From Promethearchaeota archaeon (GTDB lineage: Archaea; Asgardarchaeota; Lokiarchaeia; Sigyniarchaeales; SOKP01): DNA of 64,000 nucleotides. Positions 3,355 through 59,941 of this stretch are shown piece by piece (the first letter of the stretch is position 1; each line of letters begins with the position of its first letter). The stretch is taken from assembly GCA_020343655.1 (NCBI GenBank), contig CP070805.1, forward strand, positions 2,086,676 to 2,150,675. Direction: 5' to 3'. The translations under genes and the position numbers were made by a program. Below the pieces are notes generated by a model, which saw nothing but the letters and a program-made list of their open reading frames with translations, searched no databases and was not told where the DNA came from.

Positions 3355-4860
3355 TTAAAGATCATCAATTTTTTTTTTTAGATTCTTCCATTGTTTGTAG
3401 ATACTCTTATATTCTTCAGAGATTGATCTTTCGATGTTGAATGTATCATATTTCATGAATTCGTTAATAATTGCTTTATAATTGGGATATTGCTTTAAGC
3501 CTAATAAAGTAATAATAGCATTTCCGATAAAGGCGGAGTCTCTAATCAGTGGAACCATTATTTCTTTATCTAAAATATTAGTTAAAATTTCACAAAATTC
3601 TCTTGATTTTGACATACCTCCTGAACAAAATGTTGTTATTTCTGATTGAACGAATTGATGGAGGGCTTGAAAATTTTCATAAATCCCAAAACAAATATTC
3701 TCAATAGCACTTCGAGCAAAATTTTCTAATTTAGGTAATTCTTCTCCAATCATGCTGGGCGGAGGAAAAACAAAAACTCCTCTTTTTATTGATGTTTGAT
3801 CTTTTAATGCCATAAGTTCTGGCCCCAAATATGCAAAAATCGAGCCTGATCCAGGTTTGCCTCTACTTAATAAATTATTCATAATTTCATCTGCATCCCC
3901 CTCAGAACTTGAAATAAACGCATCTTTAAACCAATCATAAACCCTTCCTGTACCTCCTGTATTAGCTTCAATTAACCATTTATCCTTAATCACGTGACAA
4001 TCCGTCCAAAAATTCAGATCAGAGTCTATTATAGGTTTTTCTATAACTAAATGTACCGGTGTAGTTGTTCCTAAACTAATTCCTATATTCCCCTCCTCAA
4101 TTACTCCCATGCCCAATAAATTAGCTTGTGTATCACCGCATCCTTTTAATACAGGAACACTTTTTTGGTTTATACCAAATTTCTTTTTTAGATCTGACTT
4201 TAATTCTCCTACTATAGTACCTGAATCGACAATTTCAGGAAGTATATCATAGTTTATGTTAAATGCTTCAATAATCTCCGAACTCCATCTTTTTTTGCTA
4301 ATATCAAAAAGTTGAGATTCTCCTATAGAAGTATAATCTGTAAAAAATTCTCCAGTAAATTTATAGACAATCCAATCATCTAACATTAACACTTTACCTA
4401 TATTTTCATACTGGTCTTCTTCCTCTTCTTGAAACCATAACAAGCGAGCTAAAGTAAACATTAACGATGGAGTATGGGCAGTTATTTTGAATAATTCCTC
4501 TTCTGAAAATTTATCTTCAATTAGATAAGCTGAATCAATACCTCTAATATCTGTGTTAGGACCTCCATAAATCTCCATTCCTTGTTTATCTAAAAAAACT
4601 GTAGCCATTCTTTGACCACATGAAGATATGCCGATTATGGTTTCAGGTTTATTTTGTTTTATCACATTTTTTATACCTAATTTAATTTTGTTCCACATAT
4701 CATCCATATCAAATCTCTTAGCAAAACCATCAACATCCTCATCAATGATATCATATCCGTGAACTGAGACCGTTTCTAACTCCAACCTATCAGAGATAAT
4801 ACCAACCTTAACTTTTTTAGAAGATATATCGATAGAAAGTATTTTATCTGAATTTCCCAT
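3355..4860 (-). CDS. FGGY-family carbohydrate kinase (xylulo-/ribulokinase-like)
   Basis: 501 aa. It has the N-terminal ILSIDISSKKVKVGI phosphate-1 region, GTTTPV and GGTG motifs, and the C-terminal CSGGMSKS motif characteristic of FGGY kinases. Confidence 0.8.
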   Translation of the reverse strand: MGNSDKILSIDISSKKVKVGIISDRLELETVSVHGYDIIDEDVDGFAKRFDMDDMWNKIKLGIKNVIKQNKPETIIGISSCGQRMATVFLDKQGMEIYGGPNTDIRGIDSAYLIEDKFSEEELFKITAHTPSLMFTLARLLWFQEEEEDQYENIGKVLMLDDWIVYKFTGEFFTDYTSIGESQLFDISKKRWSSEIIEAFNINYDILPEIVDSGTIVGELKSDLKKKFGINQKSVPVLKGCGDTQANLLGMGVIEEGNIGISLGTTTPVHLVIEKPIIDSDLNFWTDCHVIKDKWLIEANTGGTGRVYDWFKDAFISSSEGDADEIMNNLLSRGKPGSGSIFAYLGPELMALKDQTSIKRGVFVFPPPSMIGEELPKLENFARSAIENICFGIYENFQALHQFVQSEITTFCSGGMSKSREFCEILTNILDKEIMVPLIRDSAFIGNAIITLLGLKQYPNYKAIINEFMKYDTFNIERSISEEYKSIYKQWKNLKKKIDDL

Positions 4861-4941
4861 ATATTTTTATTCCATTATATCATTTTAAAATTTTATTTAT
4901 TCATAAAAAAATGTAAATAATGATTAAATAAAAGTAAATTT

Positions 4942-5574
4942 TTATGTAAGATACTTTCTTATAATTTCACCACGCGGTTCTTTTTCCTCAAAAAGAATGG
5001 CTTGAAAAGAATAAATTTTTGTATTTTTATCTTTCCAAGCATTGCTATCTAGCCAAGCTTTTGAACATGTCTGAGAGATAAAAGTTTCAACGTCCCAATT
5101 TCTACCATGTTCCACTGGAACTTGAGGAAGAAGTAAACCTCTCCTCATTCCTTTTTCAGCAATTAGCCCATCTCTTCCAATAACAATTTTATCCACATAT
5201 TGTTTTGGATCATCTACCTCTAATAATTTAGGGGGAGTTAAAATTGATAATTCAATTACTATATTATCCATTTCTTCTATAGAAACAGAAGAAAATCGTG
5301 GATCTTCAATTGCAGAACTTATTGATACCTTATGAATTACATCATATAATGAATAAGTAGGTTCAATATAGCCAATACACCCTCTCAATGGGTTGCCAAT
5401 AACATTATATTTATTTAATGTAACAAAAGCACCATAATTGTCTGAAAATCTCTCTTTTATTACTTCTGGAATGGGTATTCGTCTATTATTTCTTAAAAAA
5501 AATTCAATATTTTCCCGAGCAAATCTTATTAACATTCTACCCTCTTCTAAGCTAAATTCATCTTCATCAGACAT
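4942..5574 (-). CDS. AMMECR1 domain protein
   Basis: Contains the LRGCIGY and GLLLPQV motifs diagnostic of AMMECR1. Length is 210 aa. Confidence 0.85.
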   Translation of the reverse strand: MSDEDEFSLEEGRMLIRFARENIEFFLRNNRRIPIPEVIKERFSDNYGAFVTLNKYNVIGNPLRGCIGYIEPTYSLYDVIHKVSISSAIEDPRFSSVSIEEMDNIVIELSILTPPKLLEVDDPKQYVDKIVIGRDGLIAEKGMRRGLLLPQVPVEHGRNWDVETFISQTCSKAWLDSNAWKDKNTKIYSFQAILFEEKEPRGEIIRKYLT

Positions 5575-5633: not shown

Positions 5634-7028
5634 TTATAGCATTCTTCTAATAATTTTTCCATTAGGAATGGAATTATCAACATTGATTTCAATTCCTCTT
5701 AAGAACACTTTCCAAATGTAAACTGTAGTACTGAATTTCTCAAAAGGAGTATATTTTGCTTTAGTTTTAAAATTATGAGGATTAATAATGTATTCTGGGA
5801 TTTTATCAACAATTAATAGGTCAGCATCATACCCTTCTCTAATAAAACCTTTATTTTTTAAACTAAAAATTTCAGCAGGATTTTCAGATGCAGCCCTAAC
5901 AAAATTTTCTAAGGGAAGTTGAAATTTAAACACTTTATAAAGAATTAGTAAAGGATATGTTTCAAAACCTGGGAATCCAGAGGGTGCTTCAGAATATTTT
6001 TGAGATTTTTCATCTAATGTATGTGGTGCGTGATCAGTTCCTATTAGGTTTATACTCCCTTCTTTCAATTCATTAAAGAGAAATCTAGAATGATTATCTT
6101 TTCTTAATGGAGGTAATACTTTGCCAAAATTATCATTGCTTAATAAAATAGTATTTGATAGAAGTAGATGATGTGGGGTTACTTCAAAAGAAATCTTTAG
6201 ATCTTTATTTGAAGTCTGTGCTTTTTTGATTGTAAGATAGCTATCTATGCAGCTTACATGACAAAAATGAATAATTGGATAATCTTTAGGATCTAAAGGT
6301 TTTCCATTAACATATTTTATATAATTTTCTATGACATATTTAACATATTTTTCCTCTGCTTTAACTGGATCTAACCTGTTATGATATTCCAAGATGCTAA
6401 AGTTTTCTAGATTAAACTCTTGGTCAATTTGTTCTTTTTCTAGTTCAGATAAAGGATAAGAGGCATGAATAAATATTGGTGTATGGAATTTAGATGAAAT
6501 ATTAAATAATTTTTGCAGGTTACTTGAATCTTTCCAATTTATTTCATTTAAAGAATTAAGTGGGTAAATTTTAAATCCTAAGATCCCTAAATTAACAATA
6601 TTCTTAATCTCTTCTTCATCAAATCCTTTAGGAACTCCTGCTATGAATCCAACATCCACATAAATATTGTTTTCTGCTTTTTTCATCCATAATTTAATTT
6701 GTTCTGTTGTAATTGCTGGAGGTTTTGTATTTGGCATATTAAACACGGTCGTTATTCCAGAAAAAGCAGCTGCCTTAGTCCCGGTTAAAAATGTTTCTTT
6801 TTCACTTTGATCCATATCTCGCAAATGAGAATGAATATCAATAATACCCGGTAAAATTAGTTTGTTTTGACAATCGATTTCTTTATGATCTTGATTTTTT
6901 TTAGCTAATTTTTTTAAATTTTTTTCTTGAGGATTAAATATAACTGTTTTAATGATATCATTAGCGATGAGAATGGCTCCTTTATGTAATAAACCTTCAG
7001 AATAAATTTTCGCGTTTTTTAAGATCAT
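5634..7028 (-). CDS. pyrC: Dihydroorotase-like cyclic amidohydrolase
   Basis: Has the metal-binding DIHSHLRD (HxH) and GTDHAPH motifs. pyrD and pyrK are also present in the window. Confidence 0.7.
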   Translation of the reverse strand: MILKNAKIYSEGLLHKGAILIANDIIKTVIFNPQEKNLKKLAKKNQDHKEIDCQNKLILPGIIDIHSHLRDMDQSEKETFLTGTKAAAFSGITTVFNMPNTKPPAITTEQIKLWMKKAENNIYVDVGFIAGVPKGFDEEEIKNIVNLGILGFKIYPLNSLNEINWKDSSNLQKLFNISSKFHTPIFIHASYPLSELEKEQIDQEFNLENFSILEYHNRLDPVKAEEKYVKYVIENYIKYVNGKPLDPKDYPIIHFCHVSCIDSYLTIKKAQTSNKDLKISFEVTPHHLLLSNTILLSNDNFGKVLPPLRKDNHSRFLFNELKEGSINLIGTDHAPHTLDEKSQKYSEAPSGFPGFETYPLLILYKVFKFQLPLENFVRAASENPAEIFSLKNKGFIREGYDADLLIVDKIPEYIINPHNFKTKAKYTPFEKFSTTVYIWKVFLRGIEINVDNSIPNGKIIRRML

Positions 7029-11265: not shown

Positions 11266-11344
11266 TATAAAATATTAGTGGAAATTATATAAGTTGTATT
11301 ATAAATATTTATTGTAGAGGTAGAAAATAGGGAATAAATTAAAT

Positions 11345-24028: not shown

Positions 24029-25277
24029 AGCTCAAGAAGATTTTGTGCAAAAAAGAGAAACTATAATAATTAAAGGAAATGAAGCAGCTGCGTATGCTGC
24101 TAAATCAGCACGAGTTCAAGTAATAAGTGCATACCCAATAACACCTCAAACAACAGTTGTTGAAAAGTTATCCGAGTTTGTAGATAATGGAGAGATGCCA
24201 GGTACTCAATACATAAAAGTAGAATCAGAACACAGTGTTTTTGCATCTGTAATAGGGGCTAGTAAAGCAGGAACTCGAACTTTTACTGCTACATCTGGCC
24301 AAGGAATATTTTATGCACATGAAATGATTCATTGGGCCGCAGGAGCTAGACTTCCTATTGTTGTTGCTATTGCCTCACGAGGACCGGCACCACCATGGAA
24401 TATTTGGGCAGATTTTACAGATGTGTTAAGTCAGCGGGATACAGGATGGATGAGTGCCTTTTGTGCGACACATCAAGAAATATATGATGAAATACTAATG
24501 TCATATAAAGTTTGTGAAGATCATGATATTCTCTTACCTAAGTTTGTAGCTTATGGGGGTTTCATTCTTTCACATACCTCAAAACCTGTCATAATTGAGG
24601 ATCAAGATCTTGTAGATAGTTTTTTGCCTTCATTACCAAGTGAAGAAGGTTGGCCTCACATTTGGATGGATCCAAAGAGACCAATGATGTTTGGAAATCT
24701 TATCATGCCTTCTAGCTTTTATTTAGAATTTAGATTAAAAATTCAAAATGCTTTTATTAGAGTTAAAGAAAAAATTAAAAAAGTCACTAAAGAATTTGAG
24801 AAAATTTTTGGTAGAAATTATGGTAATGGTTTAGTTCAGGAATATAAAATGAATAATGTTGATGTAGGTGTGATTATTTATGGTGATTTAGCTTTACAAA
24901 TGGAACAAGCTGTTGACGAATTGAGAGATCAAGGATATAAAGTTGGTATGGTAAAATTAAGACATTTTAGACCATTTCCAACAGAAGATATAATTGAAGT
25001 TGCTAAAAAGGTGAAATTACTTGGAGTTATAGATAGAGCTACTGCTTTTGGTTCTCAAACTGGAGGTCCTGTAAGCTGTGAAGTAAAAACTGCTCTACAC
25101 GAAACTCAAGAAACAGCTAAAGTATTACCAATAATTAATGGATTAGGGGGTAGAGAGGTTACTCTTGAGCAACAAAAAAATCAATTAAAAGCATTAATTA
25201 AATTTAATGAAACGGGAGAAATTCCAAAAGATACAATTCATGGAACTCTTTGGGATGGATTACTGGAGGTTGAATAA
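24021..25277 (+). CDS. porA: 2-oxoacid:ferredoxin oxidoreductase alpha subunit
   Basis: Has the GNEAAAYAA...[11 protein letters not shown]-terminus. Its start overlaps the porD stop by 8 nt. Confidence 0.9.
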
Positions 25278-25281
25278 GAGA

Positions 25282-26223
25282 ATGGTTAAATTGAAAGAAG
25301 CATTAGAATCTTGTCAGGAAGAATATTTCCTTCCAGGAAATTCGTGCTGTGCAGGATGTGGTTTGGAGTTAGCTCTTAGATGGGCAATAAAAGCTTTAGG
25401 CCCTAACACAGCTCTTGTAACTCCTGCATCCTGTCTTAATGTAGTTGTAGGTTTATGGCCTAAAACAGCACCGAATTTTCCTTTTACAAATATGGCTTTT
25501 GCTGCGGGAGCTGCTGCCGCAACAGGTATGTCTGCAGCTTTTAAAGCTAAAGCATATAGATTCCCGGGGAAAGGATGGGATGAGATTACAGCAATTACTT
25601 TTGCTGGTGATGGGGGCACAGCAGACATAGGAATTCAAGGTTTGAGTGGAGCAGCAGAAAGGAATTCTGATCAAATTTATGTCTGTTATGATAATGAAGC
25701 ATATATGAACACAGGAATTCAGAGATCTTCAAGTACACCGCATGGTGCCTGGACAAGCACAACTACAAAGGGGAAAGACCGTTTCAAGAAGAATCTTCCT
25801 GCAATTATGACTGCCCATGATATACCTTATGTTGCGACTTGTTCTATCAGTGAACCACTTGATTTATATAATAAATTCAAGAAGGCAAAGTCTATTAATG
25901 GTTGTAAATATATTCATATTCTTGCCCCATGCCCACCTGGTTGGGGTCTTGAGAGTTCGGAATCAATAGAAATTGCGAGATTAGCTGTAAAAACAGGTTC
26001 GTGGATTCTATATGAAGTAGAAAATGGTATTATGAATTTATCAAAAGCAAGTAGGTCATTGTTAGATACTTCAAAGAGGGCTCCACTAATAGATTATCTT
26101 TCTAGGCAAAAAAGATTTGCTAATATTTCAGAAAAGGATTTAATTGAACTCCAAGAATACTTAGATCATACTTGGAAACGTTTAGAAGCTGATTTACTTT
26201 GTCAAGATCAATATCCAAAATAA
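25282..26223 (+). CDS. porB: 2-oxoacid:ferredoxin oxidoreductase beta subunit (TPP-binding)
   Basis: Contains CAGCG and GDGGTADIG motifs. I use the ATG at 25282, just after the porA stop, instead of the upstream in-frame ATG at 25207. Confidence 0.9.
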   Translation: MVKLKEALESCQEEYFLPGNSCCAGCGLELALRWAIKALGPNTALVTPASCLNVVVGLWPKTAPNFPFTNMAFAAGAAAATGMSAAFKAKAYRFPGKGWDEITAITFAGDGGTADIGIQGLSGAAERNSDQIYVCYDNEAYMNTGIQRSSSTPHGAWTSTTTKGKDRFKKNLPAIMTAHDIPYVATCSISEPLDLYNKFKKAKSINGCKYIHILAPCPPGWGLESSESIEIARLAVKTGSWILYEVENGIMNLSKASRSLLDTSKRAPLIDYLSRQKRFANISEKDLIELQEYLDHTWKRLEADLLCQDQYPK

Positions 26224-26283: not shown

Positions 26284-26943
26284 ATGGGATTTTTAATAAA
26301 ACTGGCTGGGAAAGAATTAAAAGAGATTGAATTTTATCTAAAAATTGCAGTTGAAAATATAATTGAAGGGAAAGTTATTGCCTTTCCTACTGATTCTGTT
26401 TACGGAATTGGTGGTGATCCTCAAAATTTAGATGTAATTAATAGAATTTATGAAATTAAATTTCGAGATAGATCAAAAGGTTTATTATTATTAATTTCAG
26501 ATTATGATGAAGCTACTATGATTGCTGAATTCAATGATACCGCAAGAAAATTGGCAAATCGATATTGGCCTGGTCAATTAACGCTTATATTGAAAAGAAA
26601 AGATCCATGTATAATCCCACCTGAAGTCTCGGCTTTTCAAAATACAATAGGCTTACGAGTTCCTGAAAATGAAATAATATTAAAGATTTTGAATCTTTTA
26701 AAATCAGAAGGACATTTTGGTGGAATTATTGGTACTTCGGCTAATTATACAGGAGAGCCCCCCTCTATAAGTGGAGAAGAAGTAACAAAAAAAATATTAA
26801 GTCCTATAGATTTAATTCTTGATAGTGGTAAATCAAAATCAAAACTTCCAACCACAATTGTTGATTGTTCCTCTCAAAAGATAGAGTTTTTAAGAATTGG
26901 GAAGATTTCTGAGGAAGAAATTTTAGAGTTTTTATCAAAATGA
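26284..26943 (+). CDS. tsaC: L-threonylcarbamoyladenylate synthase (Sua5/YrdC/TsaC family, YrdC domain only)
   Basis: Contains the AFPTDSVYGIGGDP motif. At 219 aa it has no Sua5 C-terminal domain. Confidence 0.85.
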   Translation: MGFLIKLAGKELKEIEFYLKIAVENIIEGKVIAFPTDSVYGIGGDPQNLDVINRIYEIKFRDRSKGLLLLISDYDEATMIAEFNDTARKLANRYWPGQLTLILKRKDPCIIPPEVSAFQNTIGLRVPENEIILKILNLLKSEGHFGGIIGTSANYTGEPPSISGEEVTKKILSPIDLILDSGKSKSKLPTTIVDCSSQKIEFLRIGKISEEEILEFLSK

Positions 26944-27038
26944 AAAGAGTGATATAAACGAAGAATTTTAATCTTTTAGTTTCAACATCTCGGTATAACG
27001 AATCTAATGCAAAAGCAGAATTATGGTTTATTTTATTA

Positions 27039-27473
27039 ATGTGCGGTGATACTTACCCAATTATTTCACAAATTCAGTTTCCGGGATTAATTACTGCTTT
27101 AACTAATTTAAATCCAAAAGAAGTAGTTTTTAAGATTAAAGAAATTCTGGAGACTGATCCTCACTTCCTCCAATTTATTTTAAAAATTGTTCCTATTAAT
27201 TTTATCTGTGAAACTAATACTAAAACGATAAGCAAAATTGTACAAGATAATTATAAAAAATTCATTAATGAAGAGGATACCTTTAAAATATCTTTAAAAC
27301 GTCGACATCATGAAAAAATAGAAAGAACTAATTTTATTGAAGAAACTGCTAAGAATATTGATAATAAAGTTAATCTTGAAAATCCAGATAAAGTTATTCG
27401 TATTGAAATCTTAGGAAATATTAGTGGAGTGTCGATTTTAGAAAAAAATGAAATTATAAAATTGAAAAGATAA
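27039..27473 (+). CDS. Small THUMP-domain protein (coordinates from first canonical start; conserved N-terminus lies upstream, see findings)
   Basis: The frame is open from 26958 and encodes NFNLLVSTSRYNESNAKAELWFILL before the first ATG. The overall size and pattern fit small archaeal THUMP proteins. Confidence 0.55.
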   Translation: MCGDTYPIISQIQFPGLITALTNLNPKEVVFKIKEILETDPHFLQFILKIVPINFICETNTKTISKIVQDNYKKFINEEDTFKISLKRRHHEKIERTNFIEETAKNIDNKVNLENPDKVIRIEILGNISGVSILEKNEIIKLKR

Positions 27474-27489
27474 GTTTCATATTTTCATT

Positions 27490-28179
27490 TTATTTATTTT
27501 TTTCTAGGCTTAAGAGAGCCATTTTCTCACAAATTAGATCGTATAATGCTAAAAACATAAAATTTAGGCTTAATTCTGATCTTTTTGTATTAATATTATA
27601 TGATCTTAAGATAGGGAGGAGCTGATTCTCAGATATTTCAAAAAATTCTTTAATTGAATTAAACTTAGCATGAGATTGATTATTTATTTTTAATTCTATA
27701 TCTTCTGCATCTAATATCCTTAGTAGCTCATTATTAATATTATTTAAATTGTTTATTGGAGAAATTATACAAAGTGTTAAGCATTTCTTATTTAAATCAG
27801 GATAATCAATTCCAAACGCTTCAATACTCTTACTAATTTGCCGATTAGTAGCCAAATACAATAGTAATTCAATATTTTTCTTGTTTGAAATGTTGGATTT
27901 TTGTTGAAAGGCTTTCTGTAGATAATAACATGCAGTAAATATGTGATCTTGGTTAAGTATATACTTATCTTTAATAAATTGTATCACTGAATTTTCATTT
28001 TTATTTTGGAGTTCTTCAATAATTTTAAAAAATTGATCTAAAATATTTTCTTTTTTATCTTTTCCGTAGAAATCTAAAAATCTATTTGAAGTCATTTTAA
28101 TTTGATTTATCCCTACGAAATATGTCAAATTTAATTCATCTATGTTGAATTCTTTTACAATCAAACAGGTAAACTCCAC
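27490..28179 (-). CDS. cgi121: KEOPS complex subunit Cgi121
   Basis: NIELLLYLATNRQISKSIEAFGI matches the E.L...sg.RQI..AI...G block. The C-terminal DLICEKMALLSLEK matches the EKIALIELKK block I recall from M. jannaschii Cgi121. Confidence 0.7.
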   Translation of the reverse strand: MEFTCLIVKEFNIDELNLTYFVGINQIKMTSNRFLDFYGKDKKENILDQFFKIIEELQNKNENSVIQFIKDKYILNQDHIFTACYYLQKAFQQKSNISNKKNIELLLYLATNRQISKSIEAFGIDYPDLNKKCLTLCIISPINNLNNINNELLRILDAEDIELKINNQSHAKFNSIKEFFEISENQLLPILRSYNINTKRSELSLNFMFLALYDLICEKMALLSLEKNK

Positions 28180-28934
28180 ATTAAAAATTCTGGCATTGAA
28201 TTGAATTGAATTCTAAGAAAAATTGAAAACGCTAAGAATAACAATAAATAAATCGTAAAACCCCAATCTTTTAGTGAATATTTAATACTATAATAATAGG
28301 TACGCTCTTTTCTACTACCAAATGCTCTTGATTCAAGAGCTTCAGCAACATTAAAAGCTCTTTTAATAGAACAAATAATCAAAGGAATTAATAGTGGAAA
28401 AAGATTTTTAATCTGGTTAATGAGCCCTTTTTTTTGCATTTCATAACCTCTACTTTGTTGGGCATCTAAGATATTTTGGGCTTCAAATGCAATAGTGGGG
28501 ACAAACCTAAATGCCAATGAAAAAGAAAATGCAAACTCATATGGAAATTTCATGGAAATCAGAGAAAGCGCTAAATCATTTGGATCAACAGTTAAGAAGA
28601 AGATTGAAAATGCAGATACCATTATATAAATTCTTAAGATCATAGCGATAGCAAATGATAAGGATATAAATAATGTATTTAAAATAACTATAAAAAGGAT
28701 TAAAAAAGATAAACCCCGTATGCTCTTAATCCATTGTTTAAATAATTTACCAATTAGAACCAATGGAATTAAAGTTAAAAATATAAAAAACAAAGGGATA
28801 ATTTCGGTAAATAATAGGGCACTAATAGTATATATAATTGCAAATACTAATTTTGCTCGTGGATCTAAATTATGTAAAAAAGATTTCTTTTTCATGAATT
28901 TAAAAGCATTTAAAAATTCTAAAGACATATACAC
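28161..28934 (-). CDS. ecfT: ECF transporter transmembrane (T) component
   Basis: Multi-TM protein with a QQSRGYE (ARG-type) coupling motif, located downstream of two EcfA ATPase genes. Confidence 0.85.
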   Translation of the reverse strand: MYMSLEFLNAFKFMKKKSFLHNLDPRAKLVFAIIYTISALLFTEIIPLFFIFLTLIPLVLIGKLFKQWIKSIRGLSFLILFIVILNTLFISLSFAIAMILRIYIMVSAFSIFFLTVDPNDLALSLISMKFPYEFAFSFSLAFRFVPTIAFEAQNILDAQQSRGYEMQKKGLINQIKNLFPLLIPLIICSIKRAFNVAEALESRAFGSRKERTYYYSIKYSLKDWGFTIYLLLFLAFSIFLRIQFNSMPEFLMWSLPV

Positions 28935-40484: not shown

Positions 40485-40589
40485 GCAGACGTAGCCTAGC
40501 TGGTAAGACGCCGGCCTTGAGATTATTATGATATGAACAAGCTAGCCGGTGCGCGTGAGCGCTCGGGGGTTCGAGTCCCTCCGTCTGCG
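40485..40589 (+). tRNA. tRNA-Ser (anticodon UGA) with 22-nt intron at canonical 37/38 position
   Basis: The acceptor stem is GCAGACG/CGTCTGC and the anticodon stem is CCGGC/GCCGG. The loop is CTTGAG|intron 40522-40543|A. Anticodon-loop CTTG pairs with intron CAAG, leaving 3-nt bulges at both junctions. The variable arm is 15 nt. There is one C-A mismatch in the D stem. Confidence 0.85.
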
Positions 40590-58241: not shown

Positions 58242-58875
58242 GAAACTCTGTTATTTTTCTGTTAGACAATTCTTCACTTATTATTTTTTTAGTTGTATCC
58301 CATGACTTCCTAGCAAAAATAGGTGGTTTTTTATTTTTTTTTACATATTCTCTCATGAATTCTATTGTTCTAACATCAGAAGGATATCCTGAGCCAAAAT
58401 TTCCGTATTCATCCTGGAGTTCTCCAATTAAGGCATCTCTTTTATCTTTAGCTATTATAGAACCTGCTGATACAATTGGATATATATCATCAGCCTTGTG
58501 TTTAGAGACTATTTTTTTAGGGGTATAATTTAATAATGCTTTTATAGATTCTCCGAATCTCTGTTCATTCACATCAACAGCGTCTATATAGATGATATCT
58601 GGTTTCAAATTATTAATTATCTCTGCCATTTTTAGTTCTTCAAGTCGATTCATTGTGATTTTTTTAAGTTCTCTCTCATCAATTTCCTGAGGTCCAATTA
58701 CAATGATTTTATGGGAATAACAGTTATTCTTTAATATATTAGCTAATTTACTCCTCTTTTTAGGAGATAATCTCTTTGAATCTTTAACCCCAATTTCAGA
58801 TAAAAAGTCTATTTTTGATTTGAAAAAACATACTCCACATAAAACCATTGGGCCTAAGACAGAGCCTTTTGACAT
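58234..58875 (-). CDS. rnhB: Ribonuclease HII, ORF as callable from first ATG (lacks the GIDEAGRG strand; see findings)
   Basis: GSVLGPMVLCGV, DSKRLSPKKR and ASIIAKDKRD blocks are typical of RNase HII. The catalytic N-terminal motif is encoded upstream, beyond an in-frame TAA. Confidence 0.85.
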   Translation of the reverse strand: MSKGSVLGPMVLCGVCFFKSKIDFLSEIGVKDSKRLSPKKRSKLANILKNNCYSHKIIVIGPQEIDERELKKITMNRLEELKMAEIINNLKPDIIYIDAVDVNEQRFGESIKALLNYTPKKIVSKHKADDIYPIVSAGSIIAKDKRDALIGELQDEYGNFGSGYPSDVRTIEFMREYVKKNKKPPIFARKSWDTTKKIISEELSNRKITEFLN

Positions 58876-58896
58876 ATAATTCGAAGTGAATTAAAT
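58867..58896 (-). other. 30-nt in-frame intervening segment with TAA inside the RNase HII GIDEAGRG motif
   Basis: In gene sense the sequence reads AGA|ATT TAA TTC ACT TCG AAT TAT ATG TCA AAA|GGC. Deleting the 30 nt restores GIDEAGRGSVLGPMV. Confidence 0.6.
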
Positions 58897-58939
58897 TCTA
58901 CCAGCCTCGTCTATCCCACAAATTAATTCTATTTTATCC

Positions 58940-59941
58940 TCATGATTCTTGGATGAGTTCAATGAATTCTTCTTCATTATCCAGTTTTTCTAAATTTTTA
59001 ATTCTAACAATGGGAATTTTTTCCTTTTTAAACATCTCAGGAATTTTAATATCGTTATCAATTATTAAGAGTGAAGTCTTGTGGAATAAATCTGCGAAAA
59101 TTTTTAGACATTTCAAACTCATTTCATTGACTTTACCTTGTTCTTCTGAAATACTAGAAAAAAGAGGATAAAATCCTTCTAAATCTTTTTTTTCGGACGT
59201 AGAGTATAAGGATAATTTAAAGGGAATTGACCCTTTCTTATACCAGTATGAAGTAAGGCCGATATCCCTTATTATATTTTGTATGTGAGATTCAAATTCA
59301 TTTAATTCTTTCTCTTCAAAGATTTTTTTATCATCGACAATATTTTCAATAGGCCATCCAAAAACGTTTATTTTTTTAAAAAGATCATTATTTTCCAATA
59401 TCTCTAGTAGCTTTTCAGCAATTTTTTCAGATGGACGCATAGATTCGTTTTCATATGCACACAAGGTTCTCTTCGTTACACCTAAAGTTTCTGATAGTTC
59501 CTTTCTTGTTATTGAATGATTTTCTCTTAGTATTTTCATTAAACTACCATTTAAAAACACAACTCCACCACCCCTTCTTGCTAAGATATAAGGATATCTA
59601 TCGTTAAGGATATTCTCAAATGTATTAAGAGTAATAAAGGGTAAACCTTCTCTTATATAGATTGTATTGTCGTCTAATTTTTGGTATCGATTCCTTAGTC
59701 CGATTAATAATGGCTTTGATTTGAGAATTGTAGATAAAGATTTAATATCTCGAATTATATCAGGGTTTAAATTATCAATATTAGGAAATATTTTTACACT
59801 AAATATCTGATTTTCTTTTTTAACTAACAGATCAAAGCAGAATTTGTTTTTCTTAGTAGCAAAATTTTCCAATACTAATGTTTCATAATTAGCATTCTTT
59901 AATAAAACGTCAATTCTCTCAAGAATCTTTTCAATCATCAA
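58940..59941 (-). CDS. Putative transcriptional regulator with central XRE-type HTH
   Basis: The HTH segment is ITRKELSETLGVTKRTLCAYENESMRPS, in the middle of a 333-aa protein. Confidence 0.55.
   Translation of the reverse strand: MMIEKILERIDVLLKNANYETLVLENFATKKNKFCFDLLVKKENQIFSVKIFPNIDNLNPDIIRDIKSLSTILKSKPLLIGLRNRYQKLDDNTIYIREGLPFITLNTFENILNDRYPYILARRGGGVVFLNGSLMKILRENHSITRKELSETLGVTKRTLCAYENESMRPSEKIAEKLLEILENNDLFKKINVFGWPIENIVDDKKIFEEKELNEFESHIQNIIRDIGLTSYWYKKGSIPFKLSLYSTSEKKDLEGFYPLFSSISEEQGKVNEMSLKCLKIFADLFHKTSLLIIDNDIKIPEMFKKEKIPIVRIKNLEKLDNEEEFIELIQES

Follow-up and report, generated by a model that had tools for sequence, protein, structure and literature searches.

Comparative evidence for a probable near-cognate ACG start codon in the Sua5-linked THUMP gene of a Lokiarchaeial genome

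We analyzed a stretch of 64,000 nucleotides (nt) from Promethearchaeota archaeon (Asgardarchaeota; Lokiarchaeia; assembly GCA_020343655.1, contig CP070805.1, positions 2,086,676 to 2,150,675 of the forward strand), hereafter called the window, which has a G+C content of about 30%. The subject of this report is a plus-strand gene for a THUMP-domain protein that directly follows the gene for Sua5/TsaC (L-threonylcarbamoyladenylate synthase). Codon-by-codon comparison of this junction in related genomes indicates that the THUMP gene most probably starts at ACG 26958, a near-cognate of AUG that is led by a Shine-Dalgarno (SD) element and coupled to Sua5. Near-cognate starts are known in bacteria, chloroplasts, and eukaryotes; strong comparative evidence now points to a conserved ACG, AUA, or AUU start in Asgard archaea, and this is what is new here.

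The pre-start segment of the THUMP gene

The Sua5 gene (26284..26943, plus strand; PF01300 at E 1.7e-47, TIGR00057 above cut-off) ends in ...TCA AAA TGA, with its stop TGA at 26941-26943. Read from 26940, the THUMP frame runs ATG AAA AGA GTG ATA TAA ACG AAG AAT TTT AAT CTT, where the TAA occupies 26955-26957 and the ACG 26958-26960. From 26958 the frame contains no stop until the TAA at 27471-27473, and its first ATG, GTG, or TTG is the ATG at 27039. A preliminary description of the window had pointed out the frame open from 26958, the lack of any canonical start codon before ATG 27039, and an ATG at 26940 that overlaps the Sua5 stop as ATGA and is followed five codons later by the in-frame TAA, and the sequence is as it described. 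Its view that the N-terminus upstream of the first canonical start belongs to the protein is borne out by the comparisons given below, but its reading of ATG 26940 as the gene start interrupted by TAA 26955, and the link that it drew to the rnhB gene, proved wrong. The public annotation (P0001, 144 amino acids) begins at Met 27039 (27039..27041, plus strand). The full gene would span 26958..27473 on the plus strand (171 codons and the TAA), making ATG 27039 the codon of an internal Met28.

The 27 codons before ATG 27039 encode TKNFNLLVSTSRYNESNAKAELWFILL, in which 22-23 of 27 positions match the N-termini of orthologues, including the FNLLVST segment that had earlier been taken for the conserved beginning of the protein. 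The 171-residue conceptual protein matched 252 relatives, mostly 171-179 amino acids long and covering 99-100% of the query, most of which begin MKNFNLLVSTSRYNETNAKSELWF... Orthologues of 171 residues begin MKNFNLLVST, with their ATG aligned to ACG 26958, and thus do not start at the equivalent of Met 27039. The chance of finding 27 codons with neither a stop nor a canonical start is about 0.03 at the base composition of the window; as we read the sequences, it is the homology and not this figure that is decisive for coding. Nine database relatives are likewise called at 144-145 amino acids, from MCGD..., and the recurrence of such calls was the first hint that the start-less state is recurrent and real.

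The full-length protein matches the THUMP family PF02926 with 39.9 bits (cut-off 20.6; E 5.5e-10). In an AlphaFold2 model built from 31 sequences (predicted local distance difference test, pLDDT, 89; predicted template modelling score, pTM, 0.82), residues 3-10 form a strand and residues 12-28 a helix. Foldseek superposed the model over its full length on the modules of N-terminal ferredoxin-like domain (NFLD) plus THUMP in Trm14, PH1313, CDAT8, ThiI, and Trm11, with query TM-scores (TMq) of 0.62-0.71 across 165-190 columns to 3tm5, 1vbk, 3g8q, and 2c5s. As modelled, the protein is an NFLD plus THUMP protein of the Tan1/THUMPD1-like type, with residues 1-27 as part of the fold, and a product started at Met28 would miss the first beta-alpha unit (strand 1 and helix 1) of the ferredoxin-like domain. 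The closest sequence match of solved structure is weak (the THUMP domain of human THUMPD1, 2dir, E 0.035), and relatives carry the JGI label ‘tRNA acetyltransferase TAN1’. The protein is thus like the stand-alone THUMP proteins Tan1/THUMPD1, the partners of the tRNA N4-acetylcytidine (ac4C) acetyltransferase, in its Pfam match, its 2dir match, the JGI naming, and its fold. A Tan1-like function is, however, putative, and the constant linkage to Sua5/TsaC of the N6-threonylcarbamoyladenosine (t6A) pathway is not a known Tan1 feature.

Among 16 genomes without a canonical start, codons 2-27 show a median nonsynonymous divergence (dN) of 0.077, a median synonymous divergence (dS) of 1.24, and a dN/dS of 0.06 (Nei-Gojobori method, NG86), with zero stops and zero indels. 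Residue 28 is Ile or Leu rather than Met in six of these genomes (L002, L025, L029, L040, L049, and L057), where the first canonical codon falls 26-74 codons into the gene, and hence Met28 cannot be the start of this family. By these comparisons the 27 pre-start codons are real coding sequence under purifying selection. The same data bear on a simple loss of the start codon from ATG to ACG, which would leave either only the 144-residue protein from Met 27039 or a decaying pseudogene. Such a loss would agree with the 144-residue calls that pipelines make here and in at least eight relatives, and ACG is indeed one mutation away from ATG. It is nevertheless unlikely, given the dN/dS of about 0.06 at saturated synonymous change among the genomes that lack a canonical start, the persistence of this state through a deep clade and its recurrence in at least five lineages, the six genomes without a Met at position 28, and the absence of strand 1 and helix 1 from the truncated product.

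Start codons and Shine-Dalgarno elements at related junctions

We aligned the Sua5-THUMP junction codon by codon with that of 59 related loci, obtained by one scan of species-representative genomes and all belonging to metagenome-assembled genomes of Promethearchaeota (Lokiarchaeia). In the window and these 59 loci, the codon aligned with ACG 26958 is ATG in 20, ACG in 12, TTG in 10, ATA in eight, ATT in six, GTG in three, and GCA in one. Three loci (L036, L038, and L039) have an ATG one codon earlier, which explains the GCA and two of the 12 ACGs; apart from these three, each first codon either is ATG or differs from it by one base. All ten cases of a ‘Thr’ codon in first position are ACG, although this codon supplies only 5.8% of Thr in the window. 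In 17 of the 60 genomes the near-cognate codon is cut off by a stop from any in-frame canonical start further upstream. The arrangement is TAA-ACG in the window and in L001, L002, L006, L017, L025, L033, and L040, TGA ATT TTA ACG in L028, TGA-ATA in L005 and L013, and TAA-ATA in L029; a stop also precedes the start-aligned ATT in L035, L049, L051, and L057 (TGA AAG AAA ATT in L051 and TAA-ATT in L057) and the start-aligned ATA in L059.

On a tree of Sua5 and THUMP sequences the ACG-first genomes are spread over at least five separate lineages, and the start-codon state, which takes six codons, requires at least 18 changes on the 57-taxon tree. ACG is kept throughout one deep clade whose members are near synonymous saturation, which argues for long-term maintenance and not for a recent lesion.

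The distribution of start codons also weighs on two explanations that would need only a single-base difference. The first is a sequencing or assembly error, either at 26955 (TAA), as the preliminary description had considered, or at 26959 (ACG for ATG). The sequence GTGATATAA-ACG is, however, identical in L001, L002, L006, L017, and L025, and TAA-ACG also stands in L033 and L040; all of these are independent assemblies from different studies and differ by many synonymous changes. An arrangement common to independent assemblies rules out assembly error in practice, and we give it a negligible probability. The second is RNA editing of the kind seen at certain start codons of plant organelles, by which the ACG of the transcript would become AUG. 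Exactly one C-to-U change would be needed, and archaeal C-to-U editing does exist in tRNA, by CDAT8 (PDB 3g8q), which is also among the structural matches of the THUMP protein. Editing of this kind would leave the ATA and ATT codons at the same position in 14 genomes unexplained, and no deaminase gene was seen beside the locus. We moreover know of no mRNA editing in archaea, and consider this explanation very improbable.

Upstream of the ACG lies the SD-like sequence GAGTGAT (26947..26953, plus strand), whose core GTGAT is complementary to the 3' end of the archaeal 16S rRNA, ...GAUCACCUCC; the anti-SD sequence is that generally known for archaea, the 16S gene lying outside the window. Between this element and the ACG there is a 4-nt spacer, ATAA (26954..26957, plus strand), which holds the ‘in-frame’ TAA. 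One of the motifs GTGAT, GGTGA, or GGAGG is found 4-9 nt before the start-aligned codon at 41 of 60 loci, and relatives often have GGAGTGAT, GGTGAT, AGGTGA, or GGAGG. Anti-SD complementarity of at least 5 nt within 18 nt upstream of the start was found at 68% of the 60 junctions, compared with 5.7% of random 18-mers, and in ten of ten ACG genomes. An SD-like motif was present at 20 of 24 near-cognate and 20 of 36 canonical junctions (Fisher p = 0.03, not corrected for phylogeny). In three relatives (L008, L011, and L015) the counterpart of the window's GTGATATAA is GTGAT(A/T)TAA, and the next codon is ATG instead of ACG. Within the window, the ATG of porA is preceded by GAGAGTGATAT, a motif common to the THUMP junction.

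The nucleotides of GTGAT are thus conserved at the junction, and the codon aligned with TAA 26955 is TAA, TGA, TAT, TGG, CAG, CAA, TCT, AAA, or AAT. This free variation next to a constant motif argues for an SD element followed by a non-coding spacer, rather than for a coding or recoded sense position, so that the TAA would not interrupt the gene. The ATG at 26940 (26940..26942, plus strand) appears incidental: its position is GTG in L002 and ATA in L009, L017, L023, and L029, it tracks the last Lys codon and the stop of Sua5 (AAG TGA or AAA TAA), and in most relatives it is followed by an in-frame stop. These observations tell against a start at ATG 26940, or at GTG 26949, with readthrough or recoding of TAA 26955. 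In favour of such a start, the GTG frame is open in L019, L020, and L023 (GTG ATA TAT/CAG A[CT][GA]), and gene callers do use that GTG, giving MIYTKNF... in P0004 and MAGVIYTKNF... in P0003. But ATG 26940 lacks conservation, the M-K-N-F-N-L-L of orthologues begins at the ACG-aligned codon, and at the TAA position relatives have either of two stops or any of seven unrelated sense codons, with conservation neither of a residue nor of a stop context. Many relatives, such as L028 and L051 with the junctions given above, have other stops further upstream. No RNA structure was predicted 3' of TAA 26955 (minimum free energy -15.2 kcal/mol, z = +0.45 relative to shuffled sequences). TAA is also the ordinary stop here, closing 47 of the 62 open reading frames (ORFs) of the window. 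We therefore hold readthrough or recoding to be highly unlikely.

Two related candidates were rejected. A reassignment of TAA is contradicted by the 47 ORFs that it ends, the THUMP gene included, which argues against a code change at the junction. A frameshift fusion of Sua5 with THUMP is impossible, as the Sua5 frame stops at 26941-26943 and again at 26950-26952 and the THUMP frame at TAA 26955. The junction matched no known RNA family (within the window only tRNAs were matched), and a scan for bacterial-type promoters in the 3' end of Sua5, not suited to archaea, gave nothing above chance.

The variation of the start is accompanied by a constant gene order. All 59 related loci have Sua5 immediately before the THUMP gene, and in every one of the 60 loci the distance from the Sua5 stop to the THUMP start falls between -39 and +5 nt (-17 in the window); in L049 and L052 the Sua5 stop overlaps the ATT start as AT-TAA. 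The start of Sua5 itself is ATG in 59 of 59 loci and that of porA in 31 of 31. The constancy of these two control genes shows that the start-codon variation is specific to the THUMP gene and is not an artefact of alignment.

Several points weigh against a start at ACG 26958. The spacing after GTGAT is 4 nt here, compared with 7-8 nt at other genes of the window. In L019, L020, and L023 the open in-frame GTG three codons upstream could serve as the start instead, and the start-codon counts across relatives are not phylogenetically independent. To our knowledge, ACG is absent from the start codons listed for the bacterial and archaeal code (table 11). Reviews give AUG, GUG, and UUG as archaeal starts (PMC7531240, PMC4705826). 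In Escherichia coli, ACG initiates at 0.1-1% of the level of AUG, and AUA, AUU, AUC, and CUG at 1-2% (bioRxiv 10.1101/063800).

Proposed initiation and comparison with known systems

In the mechanism that we propose, the Sua5 and THUMP genes form a tightly packed pair that would be co-transcribed. A ribosome would end Sua5 at UGA 26941-26943, or a small subunit would be recruited directly; held by the SD-like GAGUGAU, it would begin translation at the ACG 4 nt further on, very probably using initiator Met-tRNA, so that the first residue is presumably Met. The product would have 171 residues, with the pre-start segment as its first strand and helix. The TAA 26955 would be only a part of the spacer between SD element and start, and the ATG 26940 only the AAA-TGA end of Sua5. 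We infer that initiation takes place physically on the ACG and that coupling to Sua5 termination, the SD element, or both would make this weak codon usable. Coupling is deduced from the geometry alone, and it predicts that translation of the distal gene depends on translation of Sua5. A weak start would presumably keep the THUMP protein low relative to Sua5.

Termination-reinitiation coupling by ATGA and TAATG overlaps is known from work on Haloferax and E. coli. The junction resembles it in that the distal start lies within a few nt of the proximal stop, whereas the described cases use canonical starts.

Bacterial precedents are the AUU starts of infC and pcnB and the ATT start of Enterococcus faecalis ebpA (PMC4447247), where, as here, a near-cognate codon behind an SD element starts a conserved protein. 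Annotation had placed the start of ebpA 120 bp too far downstream, and it places that of the THUMP gene 81 bp too far. The weak start of these bacterial genes is believed to limit their expression. The present case differs from them in that it concerns an Asgard archaeon, that the codon is ACG, not an accepted start in prokaryotes, and that one gene cycles among six start codons across species. Near-cognate starts are also known in chloroplasts (PMC9845219).

Among eukaryotic near-cognate starts, ACG, AUA, and AUU are typical. Non-AUG initiation in eukaryotes (CUG, GUG, ACG, AUU, and AUA; PMC3105428) shares with the THUMP gene the conserved coding sequence 5' of the annotated AUG and the conserved near-cognate codon at its 5' end. 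In contrast, scanning and a Kozak context have no role here: the start is SD-led, lies 15 nt past the upstream stop in an operon, and would be the sole start of the gene and not an alternative extension. Ribosome profiling in Haloferax volcanii found that about 30% of putative alternative initiation sites are near-cognate (PMC7261190), which shows that archaeal ribosomes can sit at such codons. That study discounted them as potential false positives and linked none of them to a conserved protein; the evidence presented here, by contrast, comes from evolution and bears on the only start that a conserved gene has. In the literature that we searched, we found no report of conserved or other ACG, AUA, or AUU start codons in Asgard archaea.

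A broader reading, which we offer only tentatively and consider rather doubtful, is that Lokiarchaeial ribosomes truly accept ACG, AUA, and AUU as functional starts in SD-led, operon-internal (coupled) contexts, and that weak starts have been selected over tens to hundreds of million years for the dosage of particular genes, namely THUMP and sporadically others, such as the ecfA-like gene of L030 described below. If this were true, the closest archaeal relatives of eukaryotes would possess a eukaryote-like breadth of near-cognate initiation, and catalogues of Asgard genes would systematically truncate or miss such genes.

For the THUMP gene itself, the practical consequences are more immediate. 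Here and in at least eight other public entries, the deposited protein is missing 27 residues and with them the first strand and helix of the fold, which compromises structural or phylogenetic use of these entries, and gene callers limited to ATG, GTG, and TTG will repeat the truncation. A THUMP start that cycles beside a Sua5 gene with constant ATG provides a clean natural experiment, in the lineage nearest to eukaryotes, on how stringent start-codon choice is, how SD elements compensate for weak codons, and how translation is coupled.

Further near-cognate candidates and the rnhB insert

Across the window, no other gene was found with a conserved domain that reaches 5' of its first canonical start, as judged by Pfam searches of long pre-start stretches and by a scan for SD elements with near-cognate codons. 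Candidate near-cognate sites at 11327 (ATA), 57477 (ATT), and 7091 (ATA, minus strand) were unsupported. Start codons extrapolated for porB, ecfT, and the ATP-binding cassette (ABC) genes were unreliable and were discarded; the ‘ACG/CTG’ of porB in particular is an alignment into the 3' end of porA.

We also ran a blind scan for conserved pre-start peptides over 82 loci (559 kb), which recovered the THUMP cases and one further convincing case, in L030. There, on the minus strand at about 5690-5830, the frame of an ecfA-like ABC ATPase runs from a TAA through 46 codons before a canonical start appears, an ATG placed just ahead of the Walker A motif. The N-terminus of orthologues (..ISKELPLILIKEV) is aligned with the pre-start sequence GAGGAG-ATAAAT-ATT TCT AAA. 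This gene is likely a second near-cognate (ATT) start in the lineage, and near-cognate starts seem to occur sporadically in other genes of the lineage.

Some further loci in these comparisons are ambiguous or concern canonical starts. Among orthologues of Cgi121 (27490-28179 in the window, minus strand), the start-aligned codon is CTG in L030 and L048; in L048 a TAG stands directly before the CTG and the next ATG follows five codons on, which fits either a CTG start or a shorter N-terminus. In L074 (plus strand, about 4854-4970), a PyrK-like oxidoreductase reads TTA at the position of the TTG start of the L079 orthologue, and a CTG and an ATT stand a little further upstream, after AAGAGGTG; over 27 residues, its pre-start stretch of 38 codons shares 85% identity with L079, consistent with a near-cognate start or with recent divergence. 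With its listed start at ATG 25207, the porB ORF shares 70 nt with porA (25207-25277 in the window). The corresponding stretch of relatives runs into an in-frame stop after nine codons (MKLENFRKI*FMELSGMDYW), and the true porB start is probably an internal Met at about 25240. Long antisense ‘shadow’ ORFs lie at 25314-25628 on the minus strand, opposite porB, and at 28495-28629 on the plus strand, opposite the ecfT-like gene, and the same is seen in many loci. They are conserved only because the sense genes are conserved, and thus are false positives in conservation-based ORF screens.

The rnhB gene (RNase HII, minus strand) had been set beside the THUMP gene in the preliminary description as a second conserved N-terminus lying on the wrong side of an in-frame TAA. 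Unlike the THUMP gene, rnhB, in its stretch at 58860-58985, has a canonical ATG at 58977-58975, giving MKKNSLNSSKNHEDKIELICGIDEAGR, like its relatives. Its TAA lies inside a conserved 30-nt insert at about 58897-58868, which follows ...GCT GGT AG, right after the residues GIDEAG. Removal of the insert restores the reading frame and yields GIDEAG-RG-SVLGP (GIDEAGRGSVLGP), the family consensus. The public annotation (P0233, 213 amino acids) is without the catalytic N-terminus.

Folded by hand, the rnhB insert has a central 4-bp helix UGGU/GUCA between two 3-nt bulges on opposite strands, of which AAA adjoins an outer helix formed by the two exons and AGA an inner hairpin, AUUUAAUUC-ACUUC-GAAUUAUAU; RNAfold recovers the same two helices. 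An insert at the same site occurs in 22 other loci within L060-L081, namely L060, L061, L062, and 19 metagenome loci. The central helix varies as UGGU/ACCA, UGGC/GCCA, and UGGU/GCUA, and in the inner helix a U-A pair changes to A-U. L063 carries a 36-nt variant with an unrelated inner helix, and in relatives the stops fall at varying positions inside the insert. In structures built by hand, pairing is kept by compensatory changes in 21 further loci, L063 included, and the conclusions on rnhB rest on the DNA of the window and of the related loci.

The rnhB insert looks like a candidate splicing-endonuclease (bulge-helix-bulge, BHB) intron in an mRNA of Lokiarchaeia; the BHB introns of mRNA known until now are those in crenarchaeal cbf5 (PMC2738675). 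The insert and the THUMP start are separate phenomena. The two in-frame TAA cases of the window, which had raised the suspicion of a shared mechanism or artefact, thus have separate explanations, and both are real, which removes that suspicion. At 40485-40589 on the plus strand there is a 105-nt Rfam tRNA match (43.3 bits) that was not called by ARAGORN. It is probably an intron-containing tRNA, which would be in keeping with BHB splicing being active in this genome.

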